Origin: Lytechinus pictus
Lineage: Eukaryota
Direction: 5' to 3'
Assembly: GCF_037042905.1 (NCBI RefSeq)
Contig: NC_087250.1
Location: forward strand, 10,294,001 to 10,358,000
Length of the DNA stretch: 64,000 bases
Of the stretch, positions 23,038 through 23,794 are shown piece after piece; the stretch's first letter is position 1; every line of letters begins with the position of its first letter. The notes beneath the pieces are model-generated. The model saw only the letters and a program-made list of their open reading frames with translations. It had not been told where the DNA came from and ran no database searches. Both the position numbers and the translations under genes were made by a program.

Positions 23038-23178
23038 CTGGAACTGTATGATTCTTTCTTGGGAGAGGCAGAGGTACATCTTGTCGGTGTCTTTCATGTA
23101 GAAGGCACATTTGTGGAGTTGTGAAACCGGGTCATCGGCGTCCATCAGAGCCATTTGCTTATCAACTTTCCGAATTAT
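23038..23178 (-). CDS. Su(H): Su(H) coding exon 8 (IIRKVDKQ...[13 protein letters not shown]...[13 protein letters not shown])
   Basis: Signature [14 protein letters not shown] acceptor, CAG|GTATTG donor; 141 nt, phase 0-0. Confidence 0.97.
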
Positions 23179-23794
23179 CTGGAGAAAGGCAGAAACGATC
23201 AAAGAAATGCGAAAAAATTATTGTGTCAACTTTGCGGATTATCTGGAGAAAGGCAGAAACGATCAAAGAAATGCGAAACAATTATTGTGTCAACTTTGCG
23301 GATTATCTGGAGAAAGGCAGAAACGATCAAAGAAATGCGAAACAATTATTGTGTCAACTTTGCGGATTATCTGGAGAAAGGCATTAACGATCAAAGAAAT
23401 GCGAAACAATTATTGTGTCAACTTTGTGGATTATCTGGAGAAAGGCAGAAACGATCAAAGAAATGTGAAACAATTATTGTGTCAACTTTGCGGATTATCT
23501 GGAGAAAGGCAGAAACGATCAAAGAAATGCGAAACAATTATTGTGTCAACTTTGCGGATTATCTGGAGAAAGGCAGAAACGATCAAAGAAATGTGAAACA
23601 ATTATTGTGTCAACTTTGCGGATTATCTGGAGAAAGGCAGAAACGATCAAAGAAATGTGAAACAATTATTGTGTCAACTTTGCGGATTATCTGGAGAAAG
23701 GCAGACACGATCAAAGAAATGCGAAATAATTATTATGTCAACTTTGCGGATTATCTGGAGAAAGGCAGAAACGATCAAAGAAATGTAAAACAAT
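23162..23794. repeat. Tandem array, 64-bp unit x ~10, spanning the intron 7 / exon 8 acceptor
   Basis: Unit starts at 23162, 23226, 23290, 23354, 23418, 23482, 23546, 23610, 23674, 23738; near-identical units, no spacers. Confidence 0.98.

Follow-up and report, generated by a model that had tools for sequence, protein, structure and literature searches.

A mirage-type minisatellite of ten predicted 3′ splice regions in the Su(H) gene of Lytechinus pictus

The Su(H) gene and the array in front of exon 8

The DNA analyzed here (the window) is a stretch of 64,000 nucleotides from Lytechinus pictus (RefSeq assembly GCF_037042905.1, contig NC_087250.1, positions 10,294,001 to 10,358,000 of the forward strand), and it carries on its minus strand the CSL/Su(H) gene. 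A search with the last-exon peptide returned 59 candidates, 22 of them with E ≤ 0.001, which are CSL/Su(H) proteins; the best match is that of Lytechinus variegatus (95% identity over 93% of the 118-aa query), followed by other echinoderms. When the L. variegatus Su(H) protein is aligned by tblastn, it falls into 11 coding segments, all on the minus strand, that extend from 41250 to 16047. Pfam BTD matches the exons to either side of the array described below (E = 1.9e-12 and 7.1e-23); further downstream there is a match to TIG_SUH. Coding exon 7 (25444..25556, minus strand, 113 nt) ends in the donor G|GTAAGT, intron 7 runs from 25443 to 23179 on the same strand, and coding exon 8 (23038..23178, minus strand, 141 nt, phase 0 at both ends) encodes part of the beta-trefoil domain. 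Exon 8 is the eighth of the 11 segments, and the L. variegatus protein model is continuous across the exon 7/exon 8 junction. The first-pass annotation, made from the letters of the sequence, had placed the array in front of exon 8 of Su(H), an assignment that both the Pfam domains and the tblastn alignment bear out. It had also set the donor at 25444; the border of exon 7 was right, and position 25444 is the last base of the exon, so that the intron starts at 25443.

The 3′ end of intron 7 is occupied by a 64-bp tandem array (23162..23794, minus strand), for which Tandem Repeats Finder gives a period of 64, 9.9 copies, 96% matches, 0% indels and a score of 1168. Each unit comprises 47 nt of intron end followed by the first 17 nt of exon 8, which agrees with the composition claimed at first sight for ten tandem intact acceptors. 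A 47-nt pattern covering positions -29 to +18 of the acceptor has 10 matches on the minus strand, spaced exactly 64 nt apart and exact in 6 of 10 cases, and no match in 100 shuffles. Cutting the array at each CAG delimits units that differ from their consensus, from first to last, at 6, 3, 1, 1, 0, 2, 2, 0, 0 and 3 positions. Divergence is therefore greatest at the edges (6 in the first unit, 3 in the second and 3 in the last), with 0-2 differences in the inner units; 7 of the 10 units have differences of their own, and an A at -32 is common to units 4, 6 and 7.

The signals of a 3′ splice site are present in every unit. All ten contain TTGAT, a YTNAY motif and candidate branch point with its A at -21, all ten read CAG|ATA at the acceptor, and none has an AG between the branch-point A and the acceptor. 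The tract from -20 to -3 is pyrimidine at 16 of 18 positions in eight of the ten units, the true site included, at 15 of 18 in one and at 14 of 18 in another. As judged from these signals, the array lines up ten complete 3′ splice regions with a candidate branch point in each, and not ten AGs behind a single one. The authentic region is the last unit (23179..23225, minus strand), with TTGAT placing the A at 23199, the tract, and the CAG ending at 23179; its AG occupies 23180-23179, and the first exon base is 23178. The nine decoy acceptors (23226..23794, minus strand) are followed by first bases at 23242, 23306, 23370, 23434, 23498, 23562, 23626, 23690 and 23754. Over -36 to +5, seven of the nine match the true site letter for letter, and differences occur only deeper in the exon. 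Between 23161 and 23178, the true exon start departs from the decoy consensus at three positions (+6 T/C, +9 G/C and +18 T/C), all of them synonymous third positions. Drift of the real exon under the constraint of its protein would be expected to leave these three differences; they may also reflect selection setting the true site apart, or chance.

The consequences for the reading frame are uniform. Only the unit whose first exon base is 23178 continues the CSL frame, as had been claimed for the AG ending at 23179, while each of the nine upstream acceptors leads to a premature stop, eight at codon 27 and one at codon 17. All of these stops interrupt the beta-trefoil domain, with three more exon junctions still to follow downstream. 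The truncation of that domain by all nine upstream acceptors had likewise been foreseen, and the eight products that end at codon 27 carry the peptide then given, with minor variants.

The GT dinucleotides of the unit occur in three contexts (GTTGAC, GTTTCG and GTTTCT), all of them poor donors. No TGGGAA-type CSL self-binding site was found in the unit by eye. Over positions 22000-26000, Rfam returned 8 matches at E ≤ 1; each of them stays under the gathering score, and 23162-23794 is touched by none. No tRNA genes were found. On the plus strand, a 257-aa open frame (23125-23898) runs antisense through the whole array, since none of the three frames of the 64-nt unit is closed there; in the stranded run described below, the array bins contain no reads in this sense.

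Acceptor use in transcripts

To define which acceptor transcripts use, four sequencing runs were mapped onto positions 18700-25700; those used as RNA were labelled "RNA?" or "?". Run X24 consists of raw stranded reads, of which about 6 in 100 were sampled; X2 and X1 are transcript contigs from two studies, and X9 consists of DNA contigs from a related organism. Depth was read in bins, and the bin 23146-23379 holds both the start of exon 8 and the exon-proximal part of the array. Its mean depth in X2 is 19.6, which equals 138.7 × 33/234, where 138.7 is the depth of a 3,815-nt transcript contig; in X1 it is 4.37, which equals 31 × 33/234. Bin depths that equal the contig depth multiplied by 33/234 imply that contigs of depth 138.7 and 31 cover exactly 23146-23178 and no part of the array. 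The same arithmetic holds at exon 7, where the X2 depth of 45.8 in bin 25486-25700 equals 138.7 × 71/215 and fits an exon start at 25556, and exons 9 and 10 are joined in the X2 contig as well (18887 to 22296).

The raw reads agree with the contigs. In X24 the exon-8 bin has a depth of 6.88 with the first mate on the plus strand and 0 on the minus strand, the pattern that a minus-strand mRNA should give; depth drops to 0.52 in the next bin and to 0 at mid-array. The proximal bin contains at most about 122 read letters, and the same bin holds 33 exon nucleotides. Bin 23380-23613, which lies wholly within the array, has a depth of 0 in X24, X2 and X1, and no array-bearing RNA was seen in these three runs. 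At an exon-8 depth of about 12-15x, X24 is estimated to be blind to decoy-spliced RNA below about 5-10% at steady state, and NMD would reduce the level of such RNA further.

At the level of steady-state RNA, the arithmetic of transcript-contig depth therefore indicates that the last acceptor is used; the rows listed for joints in the raw reads were taken up by the high-copy elements at 23850-24800. Either the nine decoys are passed over, or products made from them are below what these data can show. The skipping of nine near-identical AGs, which the first-pass annotation had deduced from the need for an intact protein, is in keeping with the RNA contigs that end at 23178 and with the zero depth in mid-array, both by depth arithmetic. 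Regulated unproductive splicing, in which an alternative 3′ splice site is coupled to NMD, would require use of the stop-bearing form, and such use was not detected in X24, X2 and X1 at their limited sensitivity.

A mirage-type minisatellite and the choice of its last acceptor

Tandem minisatellites that straddle an intron/exon boundary have been described under the name of mirages, and the array belongs to this class. Five features of the class were compared with the array, and all five were found in it; the sixth on the list is length polymorphism between haplotypes. The array is a head-to-tail repeat with a unit of minisatellite size; the unit spans the exon/intron boundary and duplicates the splice signal, with CAG in 10 of 10 units; the authentic copy is an edge unit that runs into the real exon; regular splicing is undisturbed, as read from depth arithmetic and from contigs of two studies that end at 23178; and the array shows concerted evolution on the inside, from which boundary units are excluded. 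Mirages are known from amphioxus Adh3 (Canestro et al. 2002, as represented in papers that cite it), for which units of 10-72 bp are quoted. A study of the amphioxus globins describes BflGb6, with 3 and 6 units that combine an intron end with an exon start, and a further mirage in BflGb9; it reports regular splicing by RT-PCR, as well as concerted evolution inside the clusters, with boundary units that escape homogenization (PMC3087553). Mirages in PGBD5, Adh and TnC, with normal splicing, are cited in another source (PMC3902484).

The likeness to the amphioxus mirages is extensive: a boundary is duplicated in tandem together with its splice signals, the authentic copy lies at the array edge, inner units are homogenized and edges divergent, splicing is normal, and several boundaries per gene may be affected. 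As in BflGb6, the duplicated piece consists of the intron 3′ end and the 5′ part of the next exon. The unit of 64 bp is within the range quoted for Adh3 and below the 150-160 bp of BflGb6. Unlike the amphioxus cases, the present array is found in an echinoderm rather than a cephalochordate, and it has ten copies, all with intact signals.

A human counterpart exists on the donor side. The 37-bp VNTR of F7 IVS7 lies across the exon 7/intron 7 boundary and presents 5-9 identical donors, of which only the exon-proximal one is used, the others working once it is destroyed (Borensztajn et al. 2006, PMC1557585). In both genes an edge unit spans the exon/intron boundary, the sites form a row of identical copies (in Su(H), 7 of 9 equal the authentic one over -36 to +5), and the exon-proximal site is the only one used, for Su(H) by depth arithmetic. 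The two are nevertheless mirror images, since the F7 donors lie downstream of their exon and the Su(H) acceptors upstream; the 5′-to-3′ scanning for the first donor proposed for F7 is not transferable as it stands to Su(H), where the site chosen is the last in the 5′-to-3′ direction. The array also resembles intron gain or sliding by tandem duplication (the Rogers model, PMC3265369), in that splice signals are redundant and the redundant copy is removed as intron. Unlike intron gain under that model, no new intron arises here, and the existing one is longer by 576 nt. Closely spaced acceptors of the NAGNAG type and NMD-coupled 3′ splice sites likewise offer several acceptors to one donor, some of which give a premature stop. 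Those sites stand 3 to a few tens of nucleotides from one another, depend on a single branch point and show evident use, whereas in the array each acceptor has its own candidate branch point and tract, the spacing is 64 nt, and the extra acceptors are not seen used.

No report of a mirage in echinoderms was found in the literature searched, a limited library. What is new here is the phylum, the ten intact copies, and the older acceptor-boundary duplications at exons 5, 6 and 7 described in the next section. Within the literature searched, the array extends the mirage class from lancelets to echinoderms.

The array is probably best understood as a mirage-type minisatellite in which the last acceptor is chosen by its context, the remaining units being a tolerated by-product and not a regulator. 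A 64-bp piece straddling the intron 7/exon 8 boundary would have been duplicated in tandem, then expanded and homogenized through slippage or through unequal exchange. With every extra copy placed upstream of the real exon, the gene stays intact while the spliceosome uses the last, exon-proximal acceptor. Since seven of the nine decoys equal the true site over -36 to +5, discrimination must come from downstream sequence. The true site is followed by the real exon, with a donor 141 nt away, and may be locked in by exon definition; each decoy is followed, after 17 nt, by the pyrimidine-rich intron end of the next unit, and the unit has no donor-like GT. The purine content of the first 50 nt is 58% after the true site and 40-44% after the three decoys counted. 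Exon definition thus appears to be the simplest account of the choice, and it had been offered at the outset, in the form of suppression from the downstream donor, as one of two explanations; either exon definition or exonic context is a plausible reason for the skipping. The rules of exon definition and of NMD come from vertebrate work. Stray use of a decoy would bring in an early stop upstream of three junctions and probably cause removal of the product by NMD, and the array could then persist, neutral or at a small cost, as a by-product of a locus prone to duplication.

Two other mechanisms of choice fit the sequence poorly. RNA structure is an improbable cause, given that a three-unit fold (-24.5 kcal/mol) is no more stable than 100 mononucleotide shuffles (-26.1 ± 3.8 kcal/mol). 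The predicted probability that the AG is unpaired is 0.00-0.16 in eight decoys and 0.48 at the true site, and the first decoy is the most open of all at 0.91; the decoy AGs show weak predicted pairing with the tract of the next unit. Recursive splicing or the inclusion of mini-exons is likewise set aside, as the unit has no donor-like GT and the exon 7|ATAATC junction regenerates no GT.

The second of the two initial explanations, that array length tunes the amount of productive Su(H) mRNA, supposes that the decoys are used appreciably, that their products are lost to NMD, and that the proportion of productive message is set by how many units there are. Such a sink could draw on the completeness of all ten acceptors, on the identity of seven of nine decoys with the true site from -36 to +5, and on the premature stop upstream of three junctions in 9 of 9 decoy products; degraded products are invisible in steady-state RNA, where NMD could hide decoy use, and amphioxus minisatellites of the mirage class vary in length between haplotypes (PMC3087553). 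A ribosomal-RNA-depleted library without a single read from the array's central 234 nt speaks against it, as does the normal splicing reported for published cases of the same architecture (PMC3087553, PMC3902484, PMC1557585), among which the identical pseudo-sites of F7 do not compete at all (PMC1557585). We consider tuning by array length unlikely.

The locus is a clean natural test case for how the spliceosome picks among identical 3′ splice sites. Scanning in the 5′-to-3′ direction from the donor, or selection in the order of transcription, would favor the first acceptor, which is not what the RNA shows. Ten complete sites, of which the last transcribed is used, argue against first-come or 5′-to-3′ scanning and for a decision taken on the exon side, at the sensitivity of the public RNA. 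Sea-urchin zygotes accept minigene injection, which gives direct experimental access to the number of units, to the donor downstream and to the three differences at synonymous positions. Such arrays are also a trap for annotation, because gene predictors and short-read assemblers may choose a decoy or collapse the repeat.

Older boundary duplications and the surroundings of the array

The array is one of several boundary duplications in the same gene. An older duplicate of the exon-7 acceptor boundary (25724..25813, minus strand; 84 nt of intron and 13 nt of exon, 87% alike) keeps an intact AG at 25738-25737, and the frame that begins at the next base, 25736, meets a stop after 6 codons. At exon 6, the acceptor boundary is duplicated at 26585..26792 (minus strand; 111 bp × 1.9, 90% alike), with the upstream CAG changed to CAA. 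Exon 5 has two old duplicates of its acceptor boundary, both on the minus strand: the one at 27462..27631 (79% alike) has lost its AG through a 1-nt deletion, and the one at 29003..29152 (76% alike) keeps its AG and contains a stop. These two have derived letters in common. Between them, in intron 4, lies a satellite-like array with a unit of 163 bp (27836-28921, 5.3 copies) and an overlapping period of 192 bp. Two degenerate copies may be remnants of donor-side duplications: one of the exon-4 3′ end with its donor, in intron 4 (29464..29604, minus strand, 68% alike), and one of the 3′ part of exon 9, in intron 9 (19159..19223, minus strand, 80% alike).

Four consecutive acceptors, those of exons 5, 6, 7 and 8, have thus been duplicated at different ages, and one essential Notch-pathway gene can bear acceptor duplications at four successive acceptors. 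Self-comparison of 15500-41800 identified 9 local direct duplications with offsets of 30-600 nt, and 4 of the 9 span acceptor boundaries, against 1.2 expected at random (P about 0.018, post hoc); with the array excluded, 3 are observed and 0.97 expected (P about 0.05, post hoc). The excess of acceptor-spanning duplications is suggestive, as a post hoc observation, and at that same strength it counts against a purely neutral random process.

One possible explanation, which we put forward tentatively, is that acceptor boundaries in this genome are hot spots of tandem duplication, either through mutational events linked with the 3′ splice region or through selection that retains decoys. Candidate causes, equally tentative, are fork stalling or breaks at pyrimidine tracts and a lesion linked to transcription or splicing. 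If acceptor boundaries were such hot spots, mirages would be shared among marine deuterostomes of high polymorphism and would not be peculiar to lancelets, and the ten-copy array would be the youngest product, whose length might also set Su(H) dosage.

The older duplications also bear on whether the array might be an artefact of assembly, the genome having in reality one or a few units and the assembler having generated the ten copies or raised their number. The array, with its number of copies, is taken from the genome assembly, and one amphioxus mirage was misassembled in a draft genome, as noted in PMC3087553. In the DNA contigs of X9, moreover, the array bins have a depth of 10-12, against about 33-48 in nearby single-copy bins, which is unlike a collapsed ten-copy array. 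X9 comes from another organism, about 4-10% diverged from the window in the pieces listed, and one listed contig spans 23028-23191 only. The window is free of Ns, seven of ten units have their own differences, the divergent edges and the shared A at -32 look like those of a real array, and the three older, diverged boundary duplications in Su(H) cannot be artefacts. An assembly origin of the ten copies is accordingly very improbable.

The upstream edge of the array lies 5 nt from a high-copy foldback (palindromic) element with many inverted arms (23800..24185), and the rest of intron 7 is largely repeat. There is little to recommend the idea that the nine extra branch-point and tract modules form a landing pad that concentrates SF1, U2AF and U2 next to exon 8, and hence an aid to its recognition at the end of a transposon-crowded intron: it would suit this neighborhood and the intact tracts in seven of nine decoys, but intactness is explained by youth and homogenization (96% identity), the AG has been lost in older decoys at exon 6 and in one of the two at exon 5, and no precedent was found in the literature examined.

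A second element at 24366-24837 has 46-nt terminal inverted repeats and contains a nested element. Both elements have very high depth in all four runs, and both show sub-threshold miRNA-like Rfam matches on both strands. Outside Su(H), Pfam was run on 70 of the 188 long open frames and gave one weak, sub-threshold match only; the longest of these frames (58734-60116, minus strand, 461 aa) has no Pfam match.

Further observations concern the 3′ part of the gene. At 19290-21566, much of intron 9 is overlaid by RNA-type contigs with 98% identity to the window and by reads on both strands; this signal may derive from a transcribed repeat or from another transcript inside the intron. In exon 9 (22296-22449), 6 of 154 positions separate the X2 contig from the window, and no position separates the X1 contig from it. 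The window's T at 18798 is C in X2 and in X24 (22 of 22 reads). Together, the differences in exon 9 and at 18798 point to high polymorphism of coding sequence in this animal.
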